A stretch of DNA of 64,000 bases, taken from an uncultured Faecalibacterium sp. (lineage in GTDB: Bacteria > Bacillota > Clostridia > Oscillospirales > Acutalibacteraceae). The DNA lies in assembly GCA_964411915.1 (NCBI GenBank), contig CAYPMB010000007.1:16531-80530 (forward strand), in the 5' to 3' direction. The notes under the pieces are model-generated. The model was not told where the DNA came from, ran no database searches, and was given only the letters and a program-made list of their open reading frames with translations. This document shows, one piece after another, positions 35,672 through 45,926 of the stretch. The stretch's first letter is position 1; each line of letters starts with the position of its first letter. The translations under genes and the position numbers were made by a program.

Positions 35672-35911
35672 GTGAAAAACTTGAATAATTATTGTAATCA
35701 AAACAATTCTCCCACAATGAATAACTGTCGGAGAGATGTGGGGATAAGCGGAGGGCAAAGCGTTCAGACAATTTCTGCGTTTCCCGAAAATTACGCTTTA
35801 GCTATGGCTTATGTACCGTTTCAAATCTGTAATGAAACTTATGATGCGGAAAAGGCATTGTGTCAAGGAACGGTTTTTCCGGCTCTTGACTTGCCGTTTG
35901 TGGGGTGTTGA
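35672..35911 (+). CDS. cotJA: spore coat-associated protein CotJA
   Basis: LAMAYVPFQ ... GTVFPALDLPF pattern. The start is uncertain (GTG 35672, TTG 35681 or ATG 35717). Confidence 0.7.
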   Translation: MKNLNNYCNQNNSPTMNNCRRDVGISGGQSVQTISAFPENYALAMAYVPFQICNETYDAEKALCQGTVFPALDLPFVGC

Positions 35912-36153
35912 ATATGAATAACGGTTTATTGAAAAGGCTTTCGGCTGTAAATTTCGCCATGTGGGATTTACACCTTTATCTTGATACTCATCCGGACGAT
36001 ACACAGATGTTAAGTTTATGGCAACAGTATGCGCAGAAATCTCACGCTCTGGCTAAGGAATATGAGAGTGAGAACGGCCCGTTGACTCCGAAGACGGGCT
36101 CAGGTGCTTGCTGGACAAAAGAGCCGTGGCCATGGCAGAAAGATTGTAGGTGA
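35905..36153 (+). CDS. cotJB: spore coat protein CotJB
   Basis: LLKRLSAVNFAMWDLHLYLDTHPDD pattern. It overlaps the cotJA stop. Confidence 0.8.
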   Translation: MLNMNNGLLKRLSAVNFAMWDLHLYLDTHPDDTQMLSLWQQYAQKSHALAKEYESENGPLTPKTGSGACWTKEPWPWQKDCR

Positions 36154-36157
36154 TAAT

Positions 36158-36271
36158 ATGTTCCAATATGAGAAAAAATTGCAGTTCCCGGTAAATATCA
36201 AAAATCCCAATCCACAGTACGCTAAGATTATCATCACCCAATACGGCGGTCCTTACTGCACAAAGATATAA
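36158..36271 (+). pseudogene. cotJC: 5' fragment of cotJC (Mn-catalase-like spore coat protein) truncated by prophage insertion
   Basis: MFQYEKKLQFPVNIKNPNPQYAKIIITQYGGP matches the conserved CotJC N-terminus. It then diverges (YCTKI) and stops; full-length CotJC is about 190 aa. Confidence 0.75.
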
Positions 36272-36274
36272 TTT

Positions 36275-37729
36275 TTATCTTAAGTGGAAAAAGATAAGGA
36301 ATTTATGGGTGCTTTTTTCAAAAACAATGTGCGAAACTATGTTTCTCAACATTTCATTTTTGGACTTGTCGCTGTGCTTGGGATCTCTTATATATTCTAA
36401 GACGGTTTCGATTTTTTTGGCAAATTCTTTTTTGTTAAATTGTAATTTGGGTTTCGTGTTTTCAAGTTCAGCTTGCAATTTCTGAATGTTAGCGTTGATT
36501 TCACTTTTGCGTTCTTTGTATTCTTCTAATGAATCAATTCCTAATTCATAAGCATCTCGAATTTTAATTAAACGCTTTTTCTCGTTGTCGATCATCTTCT
36601 TTATAACAGCGCTTTCATCGACTGTGTCACTTGTGGGCGATGCAACAACTTGAAAATCTAAGGTTACCGCTGCTGTTTCAAGTGCTTGCATAACCGTTTC
36701 GTTCGCTTTGCGAATTGATATGTTGTGAGATACATGACACTGACCCTTTGCGTAATTATGGCATTGCACAGAAGGTTCTTTTGTGCTTGCCATAACTAAT
36801 GTTGCACCGCAATTGCTACATCTAAGCAGTCCTCTTAACATCCACTCTCTTTTTGACTCCTGGCGTTGATAAGGCCGGTATCTTGCCTTTTGTTCATCTA
36901 ATCTTGTTTGAACTTTTTCAAAAAGCTCTGCCGGTATTATCGGTTCATGAGTGCCGTCAACAAGTATTACGCTTTCACAATGGGTCCGATATCTGACTTT
37001 GTTGGCTTCTTTGCCATCGGGATTCCAACGCATTTTACCCATATAAACAGGATTACGCAATATGTACTCCACGAAACGATTATCCGGAATGTTTCCTCTT
37101 TTGGTTTTTACCCCCATTTTGCCAAGATTGGTTGCAATGGTTCTAAACCCTTGTCCTCGATTGTATTCATTAAAAATATAACGGATGATCTCAGCCTGCT
37201 CCGGTTCAATGACATACCCCTTATCTTCGTTAATATATCCGAATGGGGCAGGGCAGAGCGGCTGGCCTTTTTCTGCTTTGAGTTTCATCGAACGCTTTAC
37301 TTCCGTTGAAAGATTGATTGAATAGTATTCGTCCATCGCTTCAAACATGGCTTCGAGTATAACAGATGTGCCTTTATCGTCACCAATGTTTTCTGAAATG
37401 GATATGACTTCAATGCCACATTGGTTTCTAAGTAAATTTTTATAGACAACCGCATCGGTTCTGTTACGCGCAAAACGGCTGAACTTCCAAAGCAATACTG
37501 CATCAAAAGGCTTGGGCTTTCTCTTCGCTTCAGTTATCATCTTGTTGAATCCGGGGCGCTTTGAAGCATTGCGTCCCGATATTCCTTCATCTTTATAAAT
37601 ATACTCATCGGGAATGTAAAAATCATGTTGCAAAGCGTATTTGCGTATTTCGGTAAGCTGGCTGTCCGGAGACAGATCTACTTGATCATCGGTTGAAACG
37701 CGTATATAACATGCTGCAATTTTTTTCAA
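36275..37729 (-). CDS. large serine recombinase (phage integrase)
   Basis: 484 aa with an N-terminal resolvase domain (AACYIRVSTDDQ), a recombinase domain, a zinc-ribbon CxxC and a C-terminal coiled coil. Confidence 0.9.
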   Translation of the reverse strand: MKKIAACYIRVSTDDQVDLSPDSQLTEIRKYALQHDFYIPDEYIYKDEGISGRNASKRPGFNKMITEAKRKPKPFDAVLLWKFSRFARNRTDAVVYKNLLRNQCGIEVISISENIGDDKGTSVILEAMFEAMDEYYSINLSTEVKRSMKLKAEKGQPLCPAPFGYINEDKGYVIEPEQAEIIRYIFNEYNRGQGFRTIATNLGKMGVKTKRGNIPDNRFVEYILRNPVYMGKMRWNPDGKEANKVRYRTHCESVILVDGTHEPIIPAELFEKVQTRLDEQKARYRPYQRQESKREWMLRGLLRCSNCGATLVMASTKEPSVQCHNYAKGQCHVSHNISIRKANETVMQALETAAVTLDFQVVASPTSDTVDESAVIKKMIDNEKKRLIKIRDAYELGIDSLEEYKERKSEINANIQKLQAELENTKPKLQFNKKEFAKKIETVLEYIRDPKHSDKSKNEMLRNIVSHIVFEKSTHKFLIFFHLR

Positions 37730-37907
37730 ATCGGCACCTCCTTAAATCCCAATTATAACGCATGGTACAAATATATTTAGCTGCTTTTTGTGAGCATTAT
37801 TCACATTAACGGCTTGTTTTTTTGAAATTCTCATTTTTAAGTCAAATTTTGCTCCCCTAAAAGGGGAGCTGTTTTTTATTTTATGTACAAGCGAACCGGT
37901 ACCAATC

Positions 37908-38321
37908 TCACCTTGACAGCTTGCCGGCAAGATCTTTGAAAAGGTAAAGGAAACATTCCTTGATTTTGCCGAAGATCTCATCTGCTGTCGCTTCGTCATA
38001 AATGTGAGAAGTCAGATTACGAGAATAGAGAAGATCAAGCCAGGCTTCTTCATTGTCAATGAGGTTGCTTGTGTATGCTTGGCGCATTACAGATTTAGGG
38101 CTGTTAAGGTCGATATATCCCTCATCAGTCAAATATTCACGGGCCGACTTCCACGCAAGTTCGGTGCAGAACTCAAACCTTTGTATTATTCCGTCCCGGC
38201 ACGATGAGAGGCCGCATTCTTCATATTGTAAAATTGCTTCTTCAAGGCGAGTGATAGCATTGTTAAATTTACTCAGCTTTTCATTCAGCTTGCTCATAGA
38301 GGATAACACCGTCTTTCTCAA
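37908..38321 (-). CDS. HEPN-domain protein (HI0074-type nucleotidyltransferase substrate-binding family)
   Basis: DGIIQRFEFCTELAWK and an Rx4H motif (SRNLTSH). It overlaps the MNT gene; the start may be 38297. Confidence 0.8.
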   Translation of the reverse strand: MRKTVLSSMSKLNEKLSKFNNAITRLEEAILQYEECGLSSCRDGIIQRFEFCTELAWKSAREYLTDEGYIDLNSPKSVMRQAYTSNLIDNEEAWLDLLYSRNLTSHIYDEATADEIFGKIKECFLYLFKDLAGKLSR

Positions 38322-38565
38322 TATTTTTTATAAGTACAGGTTCGGTTTTGCTGTCAACAAAAACAATATCGAACTTCAAAAGTGTATTAAGTTCATCAAC
38401 GCTATATGCAAAATTCACCCTTTTATTTTTATCTAAGCCATATATGGCAATGTCAATGTCGCTTCTTTCTCGGTTATCACCTCTGGCACGAGAGCCGAAA
38501 AGCACAATCTTTTCGATTGAATATTCTTCACCAAGACGAGCAAGTGAGTTATATATTTTTGTCAT
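38281..38565 (-). CDS. minimal nucleotidyltransferase (MNT) antitoxin-like protein
   Basis: 94 aa with LFGSRARGDNRERSDIDIAI (GS...DxD). Confidence 0.8.
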   Translation of the reverse strand: MTKIYNSLARLGEEYSIEKIVLFGSRARGDNRERSDIDIAIYGLDKNKRVNFAYSVDELNTLLKFDIVFVDSKTEPVLIKNIEKDGVILYEQAE

Positions 38566-40244
38566 AATATCAGATCCTTACTGTATTTCTGAGGATGGGA
38601 TTGCTTCTGTTTTTCGGAAGCTTGCATATCAAGTGTTTTTCGATATTCTTCGGCTTCGGCAATCATAGTAAATTTAACCGTCTTATTATGCTCCGATAAA
38701 ACAACATTTTTGATTTCATTTAAATCAATTTTGAAAAATTCCTTTTTATCATTAACCTTATTAACTTGAAAATCTTTGAATTTGTTATGTAACAAAGTTT
38801 CAAGTGCAGGTGCATCCTCCGAAAAAATCATTGCATGAACATCAAACGGAAACGGTACAGAGGCACTGCTTAGTTCTTTGATTCTATCCATCGGTATTAA
38901 TCTTCTTGTCATACCTATTTTATAAATATCCTCACCAAAAGAACCTATATTTGAAATTATATATACGAAACCGGCACGAGTGTTTTGTTCTCGCTGAAAA
39001 ACATTTTCTTTATCTTTTGTGAGTTTGGAAAGTTTTTCTTCCAATTCTTTGATTTTCGCAATATAGAGTTCTTTCTCTGTATCGTTTGTACTTTTACTCA
39101 TGTAAGACATAAGTTTATTTATTTCGTTTTTAAATTGTACTTCTTCTTTTTCAATTCTAAGTTTTTCATACTCTATTTCCCTACGAACTTTTTCTTCTTC
39201 AAGCATTTGTTGCCTGATTTCACGTTGTTCTTCGGCTTCTTGCTGTTTCTTTAATTCATAAGTATAACAAACATTCAATTCTTCAAGTTTGAGCTCAAGA
39301 AGTTCAGCCGGTAAAGAGATCTCATTACACTCATTTAACTTATTAAGACTTTTATGAACTTTAGCAAGTTTTTCGCGTTGTGCATCTATATTTTGAAAAG
39401 TGATATTTGAAATAATACTGCTACATTCTGCGTTGTAACAGCGTATAAGTTCTTTAAGATTATTTATTTTTTTGTGTCGCTCAAGTACCGGTATCCACTG
39501 ATCATCAGGAATACTCTTTGTCATATTACTGTATAATTCTTGCTCTTTTATTTTTATAATTGTAAGTCTGTTTTTACATTCTTCGGAAGTAATGCCTTTG
39601 TATTCGGAATAGTCATATTTATCCATTATCATTTCAGATAAAGCAACAGCAATTTCATCTTTAATCTTTTCAAGGATTTCTTTTTGTGCCGCTAATTCCT
39701 CTTCAAATTTTAATTCAAGTGTGTCTTTTTCACATCTTGCTTTTTGAATTTGATCTTCTAAAATTTGCAAATCGTTTTGTTTTTTTAATAATTCGTTATT
39801 TACATCAATGTCCAATTGAGAAAGTTTTTCGTTACGGAATTTAAGGTATTTTTCGTAATCATCTGCTTTTGATTTTTCGTAATCTTCATGTACTTGTTGC
39901 ATTTTAAGAATATCTTCCTGTTTGGCTTTTTCATAAGCTTCATGTTCATCTTTCATTTTTTGTAGATGCTCATCATATTCTTGCTTCATTTTTTCTTGTT
40001 GCTCTTTATATTCATTTTCTTGTTTTTTTATTGTTGTCAATAACTTTTCCTTAAGCTCATCGATTTCATCAGAAAAAAAGGGGAACTTAATAATATAGAT
40101 TAAAAGAAATATAGCGACAATTTCGCTGATAATGAATAAAACGCTATGTGGTAAAAAAACAAATCCATATATGATTGATATACCTAAAAGTATGCATGCA
40201 ATGATTGCTAAAGTTTTGTACTCCTTTTGTGTAAACTTCCTCAT
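38562..40244 (-). CDS. membrane-anchored coiled-coil DUF4041 / T5orf172 (GIY-YIG-like) domain protein
   Basis: Two N-terminal TM helices and about 300 aa of KE-rich coiled coil. The C-terminus GFVYIISNIGSFGEDIYKIGMTRRLIPMDRIKELSSASVPFPFDVHAMIFSEDAPALETLLH matches the T5orf172/MUG113 pattern. The stop overlaps the MNT start (ATGA). Confidence 0.75.
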   Translation of the reverse strand: MRKFTQKEYKTLAIIACILLGISIIYGFVFLPHSVLFIISEIVAIFLLIYIIKFPFFSDEIDELKEKLLTTIKKQENEYKEQQEKMKQEYDEHLQKMKDEHEAYEKAKQEDILKMQQVHEDYEKSKADDYEKYLKFRNEKLSQLDIDVNNELLKKQNDLQILEDQIQKARCEKDTLELKFEEELAAQKEILEKIKDEIAVALSEMIMDKYDYSEYKGITSEECKNRLTIIKIKEQELYSNMTKSIPDDQWIPVLERHKKINNLKELIRCYNAECSSIISNITFQNIDAQREKLAKVHKSLNKLNECNEISLPAELLELKLEELNVCYTYELKKQQEAEEQREIRQQMLEEEKVRREIEYEKLRIEKEEVQFKNEINKLMSYMSKSTNDTEKELYIAKIKELEEKLSKLTKDKENVFQREQNTRAGFVYIISNIGSFGEDIYKIGMTRRLIPMDRIKELSSASVPFPFDVHAMIFSEDAPALETLLHNKFKDFQVNKVNDKKEFFKIDLNEIKNVVLSEHNKTVKFTMIAEAEEYRKTLDMQASEKQKQSHPQKYSKDLIL

Positions 40245-40259
40245 ATTTTCTGCTCCTTT

Positions 40260-40931
40260 TTAAAACTTAGCCCTAAGTTCAACTACTTTCCCAATCACTT
40301 GCACCGGTAATGAATCGACTTCTTCCGGTGTGAAAAAGAAAGGATCGTATTTCGGATTGGTAGAAATAAGTTTAATACCGTTATCGGTTTTATAGAACTT
40401 TTTAACCGTAGCATCGTTACCGTTGATAAGAACCACCGCAAGTTCTCCGTCATCAACACTTGTCTGCTGTCGAACGATGACAATATCCCCCTCGCTGATT
40501 TTCGGTTCCATACTGTCACCTTTAATTGATAAAGCGAAAAATTCACCTTGACTCGCCATTGCAGAGGAAATTTCTTCCCAATCAAGTATGTTTTCAACAG
40601 CGCTTATAGGCACTCCGGCACGAACATAACCGAGAACTGGTATCTTGATACCTTTGGTGGGAGAATCGGGTTCGTATTTTGAAGAGGGAACATTATAACC
40701 CATAAGCCAAACTTCATTAACATTTAAAGCTAATCCTAATATTGATAATTTATCTTGTCCCGGTTTAACTTTTCCAGAAATATACTGGCTTAAATCATTT
40801 TTTGCTAATTTTACACCATATTTTTCGCAATATGGCTTACAGGCTTCCAAAATATCAATTTGCTTTAAGCCTCTTTCTTTCATTATCTGTTTGAGCCTTT
40901 GTGCAGTTGTCGCTTCTTTCAAAATGTCCAC
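40260..40931 (-). CDS. CI/LexA-like phage repressor (XRE HTH + S24 peptidase)
   Basis: An N-terminal HTH and a C-terminal S24 domain with GDSMEP and an ...K motif; 223 aa. Confidence 0.85.
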   Translation of the reverse strand: MDILKEATTAQRLKQIMKERGLKQIDILEACKPYCEKYGVKLAKNDLSQYISGKVKPGQDKLSILGLALNVNEVWLMGYNVPSSKYEPDSPTKGIKIPVLGYVRAGVPISAVENILDWEEISSAMASQGEFFALSIKGDSMEPKISEGDIVIVRQQTSVDDGELAVVLINGNDATVKKFYKTDNGIKLISTNPKYDPFFFTPEEVDSLPVQVIGKVVELRAKF

Positions 40932-40952: not shown

Positions 40953-41073
40953 ATAATATACTAAATTGAAGAAAAGTTCAAGAGTATAGTGAATTTTTGT
41001 TCAATCTTTTTGAAATAACTGTTGACAAAGTTGAAAATTCACTGTAAAATAAAAATGTTCAAGAGAGTTGAAC
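40953..41073. promoter_or_regulatory. divergent lysogeny/lytic switch region with TTCAA/TTGAA operator palindromes
   Basis: Operator candidates: TTGAA-N6-TTCAA (40966-40981), TTCAA-N5-TTGAA (41000-41014) and GTTCAA-N5-TTGAAC (41057-41073). The rightward promoter is TTGACA 41022-41027 / TAAAAT 41045-41050. The leftward candidate is TTGAAC / TATTAT on the minus strand. Confidence 0.5.
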
Positions 41074-42884: not shown

Positions 42885-43191
42885 CCATATCGACAAACAA
42901 AGTGAAGGGCAAGACGAGGCTCTTAAGTTGATCGGTCAATACATAATCGAGGAACTCATCAAGAATGATATTGTGGCTGAGAAGATATTAAAAGCCGATT
43001 TGAAATTAGATAAGTGCTATGGAAAAATCAAAGAAAACGCACGAAAAAAGGCGGTAAACGGCTGTGCGTGTGTGAGTCATACCACGGTGTATGCTTGGGT
43101 TCGTGAATACTATGGAATAGAAAAAGAGGATCTTAATGAGATGAAGTCATCTTCAAATATCCTTGATTTTAATGTGTTTGCAGATTTGTGA
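42808..43191 (+). CDS. PcfK-like protein (start uncertain)
   Basis: The C-terminal KCYGKIKENARKKAVNGCACVSHTTVYAWVREYYG resembles the PcfK family as I remember it. It sits directly upstream of a PcfJ-like gene. Confidence 0.4.
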   Translation: MKRELLKNFAEGSVTSLTELMQNAVNHIDKQSEGQDEALKLIGQYIIEELIKNDIVAEKILKADLKLDKCYGKIKENARKKAVNGCACVSHTTVYAWVREYYGIEKEDLNEMKSSSNILDFNVFADL

Positions 43192-43199
43192 GGTGCAAT

Positions 43200-44906
43200 A
43201 TGGCAGCGAAAAATGCAAAAGCAACTGACGATCAAATAATGAATAAACTCTTTAAATCGCTTCCACCAATACCAAAAAAGTTTAAAAAGCAAATATGCCA
43301 AAGAGAACTTATAAACACTGCATATCTTTTTACTTTCCGTTCAAGTGGAGAGCGTAAAGGCTACTGCACCGAGTGCAAAAAGATTGTATCTCTTGAAAAG
43401 AAGAGAACGGAAACTATGGAAGATTTTGAAAATAGAAATCATCGGCATAATGAACGAGGGTATTGCCCGGAATGTAAATCTAAAGTGACATTCAAAGACT
43501 CCGGTAGGGGGAAAAATAAGCTTTGGGATTACGGCAAAGTGATAATAATGCAAAAGGCCGGCAACATGCTTGTTGCCAGATATTTTGATGTCACGAGAAG
43601 TTATCGGCATTTCAGCCTTGATCATATTGATGATAACCATGATGTTGGAGAACTTCAGTTCCATGAGGAACACAGAATTTTCCTTGATGCAAAAAATCGG
43701 AAAGTATATCAGTTTGATCAAAATTGGTATTTTTACGGAAATAGCAATACCGCTAAGTATTATGGCTATGAAGTAGGAGATGCGGAGTTATCGAGAATAT
43801 GGCATAAGAGAAAATCAGCATTCAAAACTGTTTATTCTGAATATGAAACATCGACGCTTTACGGATTAACGGATAAGCTGTTGAAGAATACCGGATTTGA
43901 ATATTGTCCGATCACAATTTATGACTCAAACAAACTTCACAAAAATTATGTTGCCTTCTTGATTAAATATGCCATGTATCCCCAAGCTGTTGAATATATG
44001 ATGAAGTGTGGGTTTCCCGAACTCTTCGCAAATTTATTAAGTCATAACCGAGTGAGTCTAATTAATGTAAGAGCAAAAACGCCTGAAAAACTCTTAAAAT
44101 TGTCAAAACAGGATATAACAATGCTGAGACAGGGAAAATATGGTGATAAAAGCAGTTCTGAAATACTTGGATATTTGCAAAAACTTTCAAAACATAACCT
44201 AAGTTGTGAGGAGAAAGAATACTTTATTCGGAATGTTGCTCAGTACCGATATGACCGAAGCTGGTCAAAAATTTTGAAATATACAACATTCCGCAAGGCA
44301 GAAAATTACACTAAAAAGCATGCTAAAGGTGCTTTGTTGCCTTTAGAGGAATATAGCGATTATATCGTGGCATGCGAAACACTTGGTTGGAATCTTTGCG
44401 AGCATAGAATTTTGTTTCCTCGTGATCTCTTTGAAGCTCACGACAGAGCAAATGCCATTCTTAAAGCTGAAGAAGGGAGACTTCGAGCCGAAGCCCGGGA
44501 AAATTCACGAAAAAAGCGCATATTAGAAGAAAAAAGTATTGATGAAAAAATCCAAAAAAGGTTTTCTTATCTTTCGGAAATGTGGGAGTTCCATTCAAGC
44601 GGATATTTTATAAGGCCTGCCAAAAACCTTGAAGAAATAATATTAGAGGGAGATTATCAAAACATTTGTGTTGGCAAGTCGTTTTATGGATATACTGAAC
44701 GCCACGCAAACGGCACAGCTTATATTTTCTTCGTCAGAAAGGAATCTGAACCCGATACTCCGTTTTACACAGTTGAGATAACAGCAAGCGGAACGGTTGT
44801 GCAGTGCAGAGGATATAGCAACAGACCGCCCACATCAGATGTGTCTGAATTTATGAATAAGTTTAAATCATATATAGAAAACAAGTCTCTTAAAATGACA
44901 GCCTAA
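43200..44906 (+). CDS. PcfJ-like protein with N-terminal zinc-ribbon pairs
   Basis: CTECKK...CPECKS near the N-terminus. The C-terminal FYTVEITASGTVVQCRGYSNRPP pattern resembles the PcfJ family from memory. The ATG at 43200 follows GAGGTG. Confidence 0.5.
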   Translation: MAAKNAKATDDQIMNKLFKSLPPIPKKFKKQICQRELINTAYLFTFRSSGERKGYCTECKKIVSLEKKRTETMEDFENRNHRHNERGYCPECKSKVTFKDSGRGKNKLWDYGKVIIMQKAGNMLVARYFDVTRSYRHFSLDHIDDNHDVGELQFHEEHRIFLDAKNRKVYQFDQNWYFYGNSNTAKYYGYEVGDAELSRIWHKRKSAFKTVYSEYETSTLYGLTDKLLKNTGFEYCPITIYDSNKLHKNYVAFLIKYAMYPQAVEYMMKCGFPELFANLLSHNRVSLINVRAKTPEKLLKLSKQDITMLRQGKYGDKSSSEILGYLQKLSKHNLSCEEKEYFIRNVAQYRYDRSWSKILKYTTFRKAENYTKKHAKGALLPLEEYSDYIVACETLGWNLCEHRILFPRDLFEAHDRANAILKAEEGRLRAEARENSRKKRILEEKSIDEKIQKRFSYLSEMWEFHSSGYFIRPAKNLEEIILEGDYQNICVGKSFYGYTERHANGTAYIFFVRKESEPDTPFYTVEITASGTVVQCRGYSNRPPTSDVSEFMNKFKSYIENKSLKMTA

Positions 44907-44918
44907 GGAGGATAAATA

Positions 44919-45926
44919 ATGAGTGATATTATTTCAGCGCCGGACTTGAAAATGACAAGAACAGATGAAGCAAAAGTTTTGCATTTTGAAATTCTCAAGA
45001 ATGGTGAAGATGCGGCAAAAGCAATGGTTAGTTTTGCCAAAAACTTGAAAACAATGCGTGATAAAAAACTTTATGCAGAACTTGGATATGAGAGCTTTGA
45101 GGGGTATACGGTTAAGGCTGTGGGATTGAAAAAAAGTCAAGCTTATGATTATATATCGGCTCTTGAGCGTTTGGGTGAAAATGAACTTGAGTCAACAGCT
45201 TCAATCGGTATCGGAATAACGAAAATAAAGCTGTTATCGGCATTTAATCCCATGGAAAGAGCAGAGTTTATTGAAAATAATGATGTGGTCGAAATGTCCG
45301 CGAGAGAACTTAAAGAAAAGATTTCCCAACTTACCAAACAAGGGGAACAACTTTCCTTTGATCTTGAAACCGAAAGAGACAAAGTTAACAGCAATGAGGC
45401 TGAAATTGAACGACTTGAGAAAGAAAAGTCTGAATTAAAGAAAAAACTCCATGAGCTTGAAAATCGACCTCATGACGTCGCTGTGCGTGAACTTACCGAT
45501 GAGGAAAAGGATGAAATTATAAAGTCAGCTGTTCAAAAAGAAAGTGAGCATCTCAACGAAAAGATTAAGAAACTTACCCTTGAAATGCAAAATGATAAAA
45601 GCCGCCACAAGGCTGAGAGCGACAGACTTAAAGCTGAAAATAAAAAGGCAGCAGAAAACGCAGTTGAGGAATATAAAAAGCAAAATGCTGAATTAGTGTC
45701 CGAAATCGAGGAGATAAAGAGGCGTTCACAGCAACTTGAAACCCAAATCAAGGCAAATTCATCACCGGAAATAACTCGTTTTAGTTTTTTATTTGAAGAA
45801 ATGAGAGAAACCACAGTCAAACTTTTGGAGGCTTTGGAGATGATTTCCGATGAAACAGTAAAAGCAAAACTGAAAGCAAACTTATTAACATACGCAGATG
45901 CAGTAAAAACTTCTGTCATTCAATAA
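44919..45926 (+). CDS. coiled-coil protein with N-terminal DNA-binding-like domain
   Basis: AAGGAGG RBS, 335 aa, with a long KE-rich coiled coil. Confidence 0.5.
   Translation: MSDIISAPDLKMTRTDEAKVLHFEILKNGEDAAKAMVSFAKNLKTMRDKKLYAELGYESFEGYTVKAVGLKKSQAYDYISALERLGENELESTASIGIGITKIKLLSAFNPMERAEFIENNDVVEMSARELKEKISQLTKQGEQLSFDLETERDKVNSNEAEIERLEKEKSELKKKLHELENRPHDVAVRELTDEEKDEIIKSAVQKESEHLNEKIKKLTLEMQNDKSRHKAESDRLKAENKKAAENAVEEYKKQNAELVSEIEEIKRRSQQLETQIKANSSPEITRFSFLFEEMRETTVKLLEALEMISDETVKAKLKANLLTYADAVKTSVIQ

Follow-up and report, generated by a model that had tools for sequence, protein, structure and literature searches.

Two known modules, a SNIPE/PD-lambda-1 homolog and a HEPN-MNT toxin-antitoxin pair, in the repressor-integrase slot of a prophage from an uncultured Faecalibacterium

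We analysed a 64,000-nt stretch of DNA (hereafter the window) from an uncultured Faecalibacterium sp. (GenBank assembly GCA_964411915.1, contig CAYPMB010000007.1, positions 16,531 to 80,530 of the forward strand). Within a prophage carried on this stretch, the list of open reading frames (ORFs) and the sequence itself show four tightly packed minus-strand genes, which encode in this order a repressor, a 560-aa membrane protein, a minimal nucleotidyltransferase (MNT) and a HEPN protein; a hairpin and then a serine integrase follow 3′ of the HEPN gene. A preliminary description of the locus had reported this four-gene arrangement with the same coordinates, spacer and gene overlap, all of which were confirmed, and had considered the last three genes an uncharacterised three-gene defence system. 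Our results make it very probable that positions 37908-40244 hold two independent modules of known type, stacked in the cargo slot that lies between repressor and integrase in a temperate phage whose host is a spore-forming Firmicute. According to PADLOC, the large protein falls into the SNIPE/PD-lambda-1 family, a characterised single-gene defence, and the idea of an uncharacterised system was thus not upheld. Both modules carry the profile matches and conserved motifs of their families, they assort independently among related prophages, and nucleotide homology breaks at module borders.

Judged by its sequence, the 560-aa protein (38562..40244, minus strand) is a full-length homolog of SNIPE/PD-lambda-1, a system discovered by Vassallo et al. 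(2022; PMC9519451). All SNIPE features that can be checked at this level were found: a profile match, a predicted transmembrane (TM) anchor, DUF4041, and a GIY-YIG/T5orf172 domain with the catalytic Glu. PADLOC model PDLC03976 (PD-Lambda-1) matched with an E-value of 1.9e-117, aligning aa 47-550 to model positions 13-482 of 491. The DUF4041 core (PF13250, now named SNIPE; aa 264-319, 39288..39455, minus strand) was detected at E 2.3e-13 with 50.2 bits against a gathering score of 27. The C-terminal T5orf172/MUG113 nuclease domain of the GIY-YIG clan (aa 425-515, 38700..38972, minus strand) scored 69.4 bits for T5orf172 and 71.4 bits for MUG113, both over the Pfam cutoff. At the hydrophobic N-terminus, a two-helix TM hairpin is predicted for aa 6-52 (40089..40229, minus strand): Kyte-Doolittle windows >1.6 begin at residues 8-43, and AlphaFold2 (AF2) predicts helices at residues 6-29 and 36-52. 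The AF2 model of the whole protein (mean pLDDT 76) comprises further a 149-residue helix (61-209), the DUF4041 helices, a helix spanning 313-421 and an alpha/beta domain (425-527), the two long helices summing to ~260 aa. A Foldseek search of PDB with the full-length model returned insignificant coiled-coil matches alone (best E 0.08), as the elongated helices swamp the small nuclease domain. Some database records name homologs of the 560-aa protein “chromosome segregation ATPase” or “putative regulatory protein”; the Pfam scan gave no domain support for the ATPase labels.

SNIPE is a single inner-membrane-anchored protein with a GIY-YIG nuclease that cleaves the DNA of a phage while it is being injected (Saxton et al., 2025, bioRxiv 10.1101/2025.11.03.685801). 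In the alignment to E. coli SNIPE, we used the E. coli protein of phage PhiR26_1 (L282). It matches 9/9 residues named in the SNIPE paper (E223, N250, L253, W257, E264, K305, I308, T319, and E414) and, because all nine of these position-named residues agree, represents the characterised SNIPE or a near-identical copy. Catalytic E414 of this protein aligns with E482 of the window protein (codon 38799-38801), and E482 is invariant in 19 homologs. Both proteins share a membrane anchor, a helical stalk, DUF4041, a C-terminal GIY-YIG/T5orf172 domain with the catalytic Glu, and the organisation as a single ORF on a mobile element. The window protein differs in that identity reaches ~41% over the C-terminal 60% alone, the stalk is ~60 aa longer, and two TM helices are predicted instead of one; in the survey of SNIPE homologs, one TM helix was assigned to 59% and two to 7% (Saxton et al., 2025, bioRxiv 10.1101/2025.11.03.685801). 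In the same study, E. coli SNIPE deprived of its TM anchor was toxic to the host. The settings differ as well: E. coli SNIPE has ManYZ as its host partner, whereas the window host is a Gram-positive spore-former and its gene stands directly after the repressor in a prophage lysogeny operon. In the Firmicute S. thermophilus, a PD-Lambda-1 homolog is protective as a lone gene, whether it is carried on a plasmid or in the chromosome.

The second module consists of a 94-aa MNT, the predicted antitoxin (38281..38565, minus strand), and a 129-aa HEPN protein of the HI0074/NTase_sub_bind family, the predicted RNase toxin (37908..38297, minus strand). The MNT contains a Polbeta/NTP_transf_2 domain (E 2.9e-19; 69.4 bits vs. 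a cutoff of 26.9) and the GS-X10-DXD motif (38446-38502; GSRARGD...DIDI, LFGSRARGDNRERSDIDIA / GSRARGDNRERSDID). The HEPN protein matches PF08780 (E 3.1e-35) and TIGR01987 (102 bits vs. a cutoff of 55.8), and its RX4HXY motif reads RNLTSHIY (aa 93-100, 37998-38021), with R93, N94, H98, and Y100 kept in 14 homologs. Its closest solved relatives are TTHA0048 (1WTY; 4e-18), a Legionella pneumophila HEPN toxin (8XDJ; E 1.6e-15) and HI0074, while that of the MNT is the Legionella MNT (8xeh_E; E 1.7e-6); TTHA0048 (1WTY) and HI0073/HI0074 (1JOG) are structural-genomics relatives of the pair. The MNT gene precedes the HEPN gene in the same orientation, as it does in the related prophages L004, L010, and L016. 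The overlap of the two genes given in the preliminary description stood. Translation of HEPN most likely begins at ATG 38297, where all close homologs start as well, and not at TTG 38321, so that the overlap amounts to 17 nt. The remaining domain and motif assignments of that description (TM helices, coiled coil, DUF4041, T5orf172/MUG113, MNT, HEPN, GSRARGD...DIDI and RNLTSH) were all recovered, the motifs in the sequence itself and the others by Pfam/NCBIfam, hydropathy or AF2.

By domains and motifs, the pair is a type VII HEPN-MNT toxin-antitoxin (TA) pair of the HI0074/Legionella type. Its earlier label, HepT/MntA type, was correct as to the HEPN-MNT pair and only approximate as to the subtype. 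The MNT reached 52.1 bits with the NCBIfam MntA equivalog NF047752, under the cutoff of 60, and PF08780 was the sole Pfam match of the HEPN protein, with no DUF86 at E <= 0.01; HepT/MntA in the strict sense was therefore rejected. The Legionella pair likewise combines an NTase_sub_bind/HI0074 HEPN protein carrying RX4HXY and an acceptor Tyr with a small MNT carrying GS-X10-DXD, encoded by overlapping genes with MNT 5′ of HEPN. Similarity to it is remote, however, and the window pair is prophage-borne, lies directly before an integrase and comes from a mostly fused clade. In Legionella, AMPylation of the RX4HXY Tyr by the MNT shuts off the HEPN RNase (PMC11586414). The conserved Y100 suggests that the window HEPN protein may be silenced in the same way. 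The logic is also the same in HepT/MntA (Shewanella SO_3166/SO_3165) and the fused FhepTA, in which the MNT oligoAMPylates the HEPN protein (PMC13000451).

Relatives of the HEPN protein are mostly fused MNT-HEPN polypeptides of ~218 aa, with 51/53 metagenome relatives in the fused form. What sets the split form apart is a single extra T, which follows the Leu codon at the close of the MNT domain and precedes the HEPN ATG (window 38281-38300): the split junction reads ...GTT ATC CTC T ATG AGC..., the fused one ...GTG ATT TTA ATG AGT... (domain junctions of L180, L106, L194, and L096 compared). The extra T is common to the window, L004, L010, and L016. For Shewanella FhepTA, fused and split forms that interconvert on prophages have been described (Yao et al., 2026, PMC13000451). 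Both cases are alike in that small changes at the domain junction make the switch and in that the genes occur mainly on prophages and mobile elements; they differ in that the window clade shows a single-nucleotide indel, while in the split pair of Shewanella the two genes are 15 bp apart, with a ribosome-binding site (RBS) in between (PMC13000451).

A comparison with related prophages revealed how the slot between repressor and integrase is filled. In the window it contains SNIPE and MNT-HEPN; in L018, SNIPE (cut at the contig end), MNT-HEPN, and AbiD; in L016 and L017, an Mrr_cat nuclease, a 5′-deleted SNIPE remnant, MNT-HEPN, and AbiD. Serine integrases of L016, L017, and L018 are the same as that of the window (94.8% nt identity). 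L010 carries a divergent SNIPE (40% identity) with MNT-HEPN (HEPN 80% identity), L004 and L005 an ORF of 114 or 134 aa of no known family with MNT-HEPN (HEPN 88% identity), and L003 SNIPE alone. The remnant in L016 shares 92% identity with window aa 313-543 and follows 35 bp left over from the 3′ end of a window-type repressor; as a deletion remnant of the same SNIPE gene, it was rejected as an independent association of T5orf172 with MNT/HEPN. It forms an intact 235-aa ORF (L016:3972-4689, also L017:1387-2104) 3′ of the inserted Mrr_cat gene, corresponding to the C-terminal nuclease half of SNIPE and devoid of TM anchor, stalk, and DUF4041. On viral contig L187 (3282-4675), SNIPE is split into two ORFs by a frameshift or stop beside an intact fused MNT-HEPN gene. 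At the nucleotide level, the window is homologous to L010 and to L004 from 3 nt before the MNT ATG to at or just past the hairpin, and this block is flanked by unrelated upstream genes and different integrases. The block structure of the sister prophages indicates that MNT-HEPN and SNIPE are separate mobile blocks in a common hotspot. AbiD (PADLOC E 7.7e-102 in L016) and the Mrr-like nuclease in the same slot further identify it as a prophage defence-cargo hotspot with stacked known modules, in support of the earlier proposal of a prophage defence region at this position. It shows no essential difference from described defence hotspots in prophage lysogeny modules: SNIPE, MNT-HEPN, AbiD, and the Mrr-like nuclease swap between repressor and integrase, in repressor orientation, and the Firmicute case has 2-4 stacked modules visible among sister prophages. 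For the cassette as a whole, a DNA search of a phage collection gave no close match (coverage <=15%).

The position of the TA pair within the slot is nearly constant. An integrase (tyrosine or serine) lies directly 3′ of MNT-HEPN in 38/53 metagenome and 19/23 mapped viral loci. In the clade as a whole, the pair is almost always the last gene before the integrase, ~60-150 nt upstream (L180-L201, L283-L362), and comes after a repressor whether or not the slot holds further cargo; this preference for the integrase end holds with tyrosine or serine integrases and with S24-type or ImmR/ImmA repressors. The 114- and 134-aa ORFs mentioned above (L004:2558-2902, L005:2093-2497) and a 90-aa ORF (L002:6898-7170) in the same slot gave no Pfam or PADLOC match; they are candidate cargo or defence genes.

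To what extent the two modules travel together was assessed from both sides. SNIPE was sampled in two sets of 80 loci, one drawn from distinct species and the other from viral contigs, each being the best 80 matches of its scan, and MNT/HEPN genes were sought within 5 kb. Members of the window family were present at one genome and one viral locus (2/160), so that ~99% of the sampled loci were without them. The nearest SNIPE homologs, P0002 (58% identity) and P0003 (55%), are flanked by a repressor (or ImmR/ImmA) on one side and an integrase on the other, without MNT or HEPN. Among 125 distinct co-oriented ORFs immediately 3′ of SNIPE, Pfam identified 42 tyrosine integrases, 15 serine recombinases, and 2 MNT/HEPN proteins. 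At viral SNIPE loci an integrase follows within 3 kb in 58/80, usually within 400 nt, and therefore leaves no space for an MNT-HEPN pair. Most MNT-HEPN loci, in turn, are free of SNIPE (45/53 metagenome and 17/23 viral, 62/76 together). When MNT-HEPN sequences were clustered at 90% identity, SNIPE-adjacent loci fell into 2/20 clusters, within which SNIPE occurred in 10/31 and 3/9 loci; the same MNT-HEPN allele is thus found with and without SNIPE. Set against a base rate of SNIPE in 6/67 repressor-anchored slots, its presence beside MNT-HEPN was not significantly enriched (Fisher p = 0.07 and 0.39; 0.15 combined). Sequence identities are incongruent as well, with 80% for HEPN vs. 40% for SNIPE in L010, and an L003 SNIPE at 55% without any HEPN. 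Co-occurrence statistics had been proposed earlier as a check on the three-gene idea, and their outcome spoke against it.

Could the membrane T5orf172 protein, MNT, and HEPN nevertheless form one integrated three-gene defence system, in which the HEPN RNase and the MNT as its regulator would be functionally coupled to the membrane nuclease, for example as sensor and effector? Tight packing and the ATGA at 38562-38565, in which the TGA of the 560-aa ORF overlaps the MNT ATG, would suit such a system, as would the order SNIPE, then MNT/HEPN in several prophage lineages; our literature search found no paper on T5orf172 together with HEPN and MNT. Yet SNIPE suffices on its own in both E. coli and S. 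thermophilus, nearly all sampled SNIPE loci, the nearest homologs included, do without the pair, the same MNT-HEPN alleles occur with and without SNIPE, and the HEPN and SNIPE identities disagree. Homology breaks at the MNT start, and SNIPE has decayed beside intact MNT/HEPN in L016 and L187. The ATGA overlap is not kept even in the closest sister lineage: in L016 and L018 the SNIPE ORF ends at a TAA, and 44 nt separate it from the MNT ATG, which marks the overlap as lineage-specific, and conserved translational coupling of SNIPE and MNT was rejected on this ground. Neither conserved co-occurrence nor co-inheritance as a block could be seen in the sequences compared, and we regard the integrated system as very improbable. 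The reading as two independent known modules has points against it too. In the window itself, the ATGA overlap fits translational coupling of the SNIPE and MNT genes. SNIPE is directly followed by MNT/HEPN in ~5 sequence combinations (the window with L018, L010, L096, the L106 type, and the L194 type), and the enrichment on viral contigs is borderline (p = 0.07), so a weak preferential association or synergy of SNIPE and MNT/HEPN may exist. The statistics draw on the best 80 matches per scan, uncorrected for phylogeny. PADLOC matched the MNT to candidate systems alone (PDC-S09) and the HEPN protein to nothing, and the HI0074-type HEPN-MNT family is not known for anti-phage activity. We retain a small probability that the modules are separable yet preferentially stacked and cooperating: SNIPE would act at DNA entry and the HEPN RNase as a backup when SNIPE is evaded or inhibited, or else the TA pair would stabilise a costly nuclease gene. 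Either variant would account for the ~5 independent juxtapositions, all in one order, and for the borderline enrichment on viral contigs.

The modules could also be independent with a different division of labour, in which MNT-HEPN would be mainly an addiction or stabilisation module at the integrase end, killing cells that lose the prophage, and SNIPE the sole defence gene. The recurrent position of the pair directly before the integrase (38/53 and 19/23 loci, see above) agrees with this, and PADLOC holds no validated system for MNT-HEPN. Characterised HEPN-MNT relatives are TA modules on prophages and mobile elements, and the cited sections of the reports mention no phage-defence phenotype (PMC11586414, PMC13000451). 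Bona fide defence genes (AbiD, the Mrr-like nuclease, SNIPE) in the same slot of sister prophages point the other way, as does the match of the MNT to the PADLOC candidate-system models PDC-S09. HEPN RNases are, moreover, frequent abortive-infection effectors. On balance, we consider a predominantly addictive role possible but rather unlikely; the integrase-side position of MNT-HEPN fits a defence or a prophage-maintenance role alike. That the 560-aa protein is not cargo at all but a replication, lysogeny, or lysis factor of the phage itself is hardly credible. Its gene does lie in the lysogeny operon, and labels such as “chromosome segregation ATPase” or “putative regulatory protein” on homologs would suit such a role. 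Sister prophages that share the integrase can, however, dispense with the gene, which L016/L017 have in truncated form and which is replaced or missing in L004, and it is present in 6/67 repressor-anchored slots only; its sequence family is a demonstrated defence system, and the “ATPase” labels lack domain support.

Two stacked modules in this slot raise the question of how they are expressed. The CI/LexA-like prophage repressor with a helix-turn-helix and a Peptidase_S24 domain (40260..40931, minus strand; Pfam Peptidase_S24 E 6.9e-30) has an uncertain start codon, the gene caller on the identical contig L001 giving 204 aa. From its stop TAA (40260-40262), a 15-nt spacer, AAAGGAGCAGAAAAT, which includes the RBS AAGGAG, leads to the ATG of the 560-aa ORF at 40244. 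The earlier statement that the junctions of the cassette leave no room for promoters was borne out. A sigma-70-like promoter match (TTGAAC-17-TATTAT, 40953..40981, minus strand), a candidate lysogeny promoter by consensus only, lies 5′ of the repressor, and a divergent match (TTGACA-17-TAAAAT, 41022-41050, plus strand), likewise by consensus, precedes a Cro-like DUF739 gene (DUF739 E 2.8e-30). Both modules probably belong to the repressor transcript that starts at the lysogeny promoter, as suggested by the 15-nt gap, by the repressor-SNIPE junction, where no terminator is predicted, and by relatives with the same layout, in which 12-73 nt separate the repressor from the first cargo gene.

For the window locus, we infer that the lysogen expresses the modules, that the nuclease and the RNase are active and that phage protection results. 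By analogy with E. coli SNIPE, the two-helix membrane hairpin and the coiled-coil stalk would hold DUF4041 and the GIY-YIG/T5orf172 nuclease at the cytoplasmic face of the membrane, where the protein would cut the DNA of incoming, mostly siphovirus-type phages at injection; the SNIPE homolog alone would then shield the lysogen from superinfection. In the TA pair, the MNT would silence the HEPN RNase by AMPylating its RX4HXY Tyr, and the RNase, once freed, would cause infection to abort or act against cells that lose the prophage.

The hairpin that separates the cargo from the integrase had been placed at ~37850-37870 and proved real. It is GC-rich, with an 8-bp stem and a 3-nt loop (37851..37869; GCTCCCCTAAAAGGGGAGC, ~-15.5 kcal/mol). 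Its T-run lies on the plus strand, while the cassette strand continues with AAAAUUUGAC, so that the hairpin does not qualify as a canonical terminator for the cassette, and a role as a clean cassette terminator is unsupported. Sister prophages share the hairpin along with the integrase block. Stem and flanks are kept in L010 (with a different loop) and in L016; in L004 the hairpin is absent. As the plus strand is that of the host cotJ operon, the hairpin may insulate the lysogeny operon from antisense cotJ read-through. Beyond it lies the prophage integrase, a large serine recombinase with Resolvase, Recombinase, and Zn_ribbon_recom domains (36275..37729, minus strand), which abuts a 5′ fragment of a cotJC-like gene. 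The prophage is inserted within this gene (Mn-catalase family, spore coat; window 35672-36275): CotJA/CotJB-like ORFs and the 5′ cotJC fragment, ending ...ITQYGGP, run into the integrase end, and no 3′ cotJC fragment was found within the window. In L018 (4480-5062), it is the 3′ part of cotJC (GGPDGELGASLRYLSQRF...) that adjoins the same integrase arm, co-directionally, which implies the opposite orientation of integration. The junction holds a short inverted repeat. On the other side of the repressor, the early region of the prophage (43188-45926) encodes PcfJ-like and ParB/“Plasmid_parti_N”-like proteins (Pfam annotation of the identical contig L001), a set more typical of conjugative or plasmid-like elements.

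The SNIPE and HEPN-MNT families as such were known before; specific to this locus are a two-TM, long-stalk SNIPE in a spore-former prophage, a split form from a mostly fused MNT-HEPN clade, and the resolved stacking of cargo. A locus that looks like a new multi-gene defence system thus very likely consists of two stacked known modules, which warns against calling “systems” from tight packing alone. It also documents a Firmicute prophage repressor-integrase slot in which SNIPE, HEPN-MNT, AbiD, and an Mrr-like nuclease swap, and in which, among the sampled loci of the closest SNIPE homologs, an integrase is most often the next gene. Such slots are useful for finding new cargo, for example the unannotated 114-, 134-, and 90-aa ORFs. 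If layered defence by both modules were true, the prophage would offer a simple two-module model of synergy between an entry-stage nuclease and an abortive-infection RNase.

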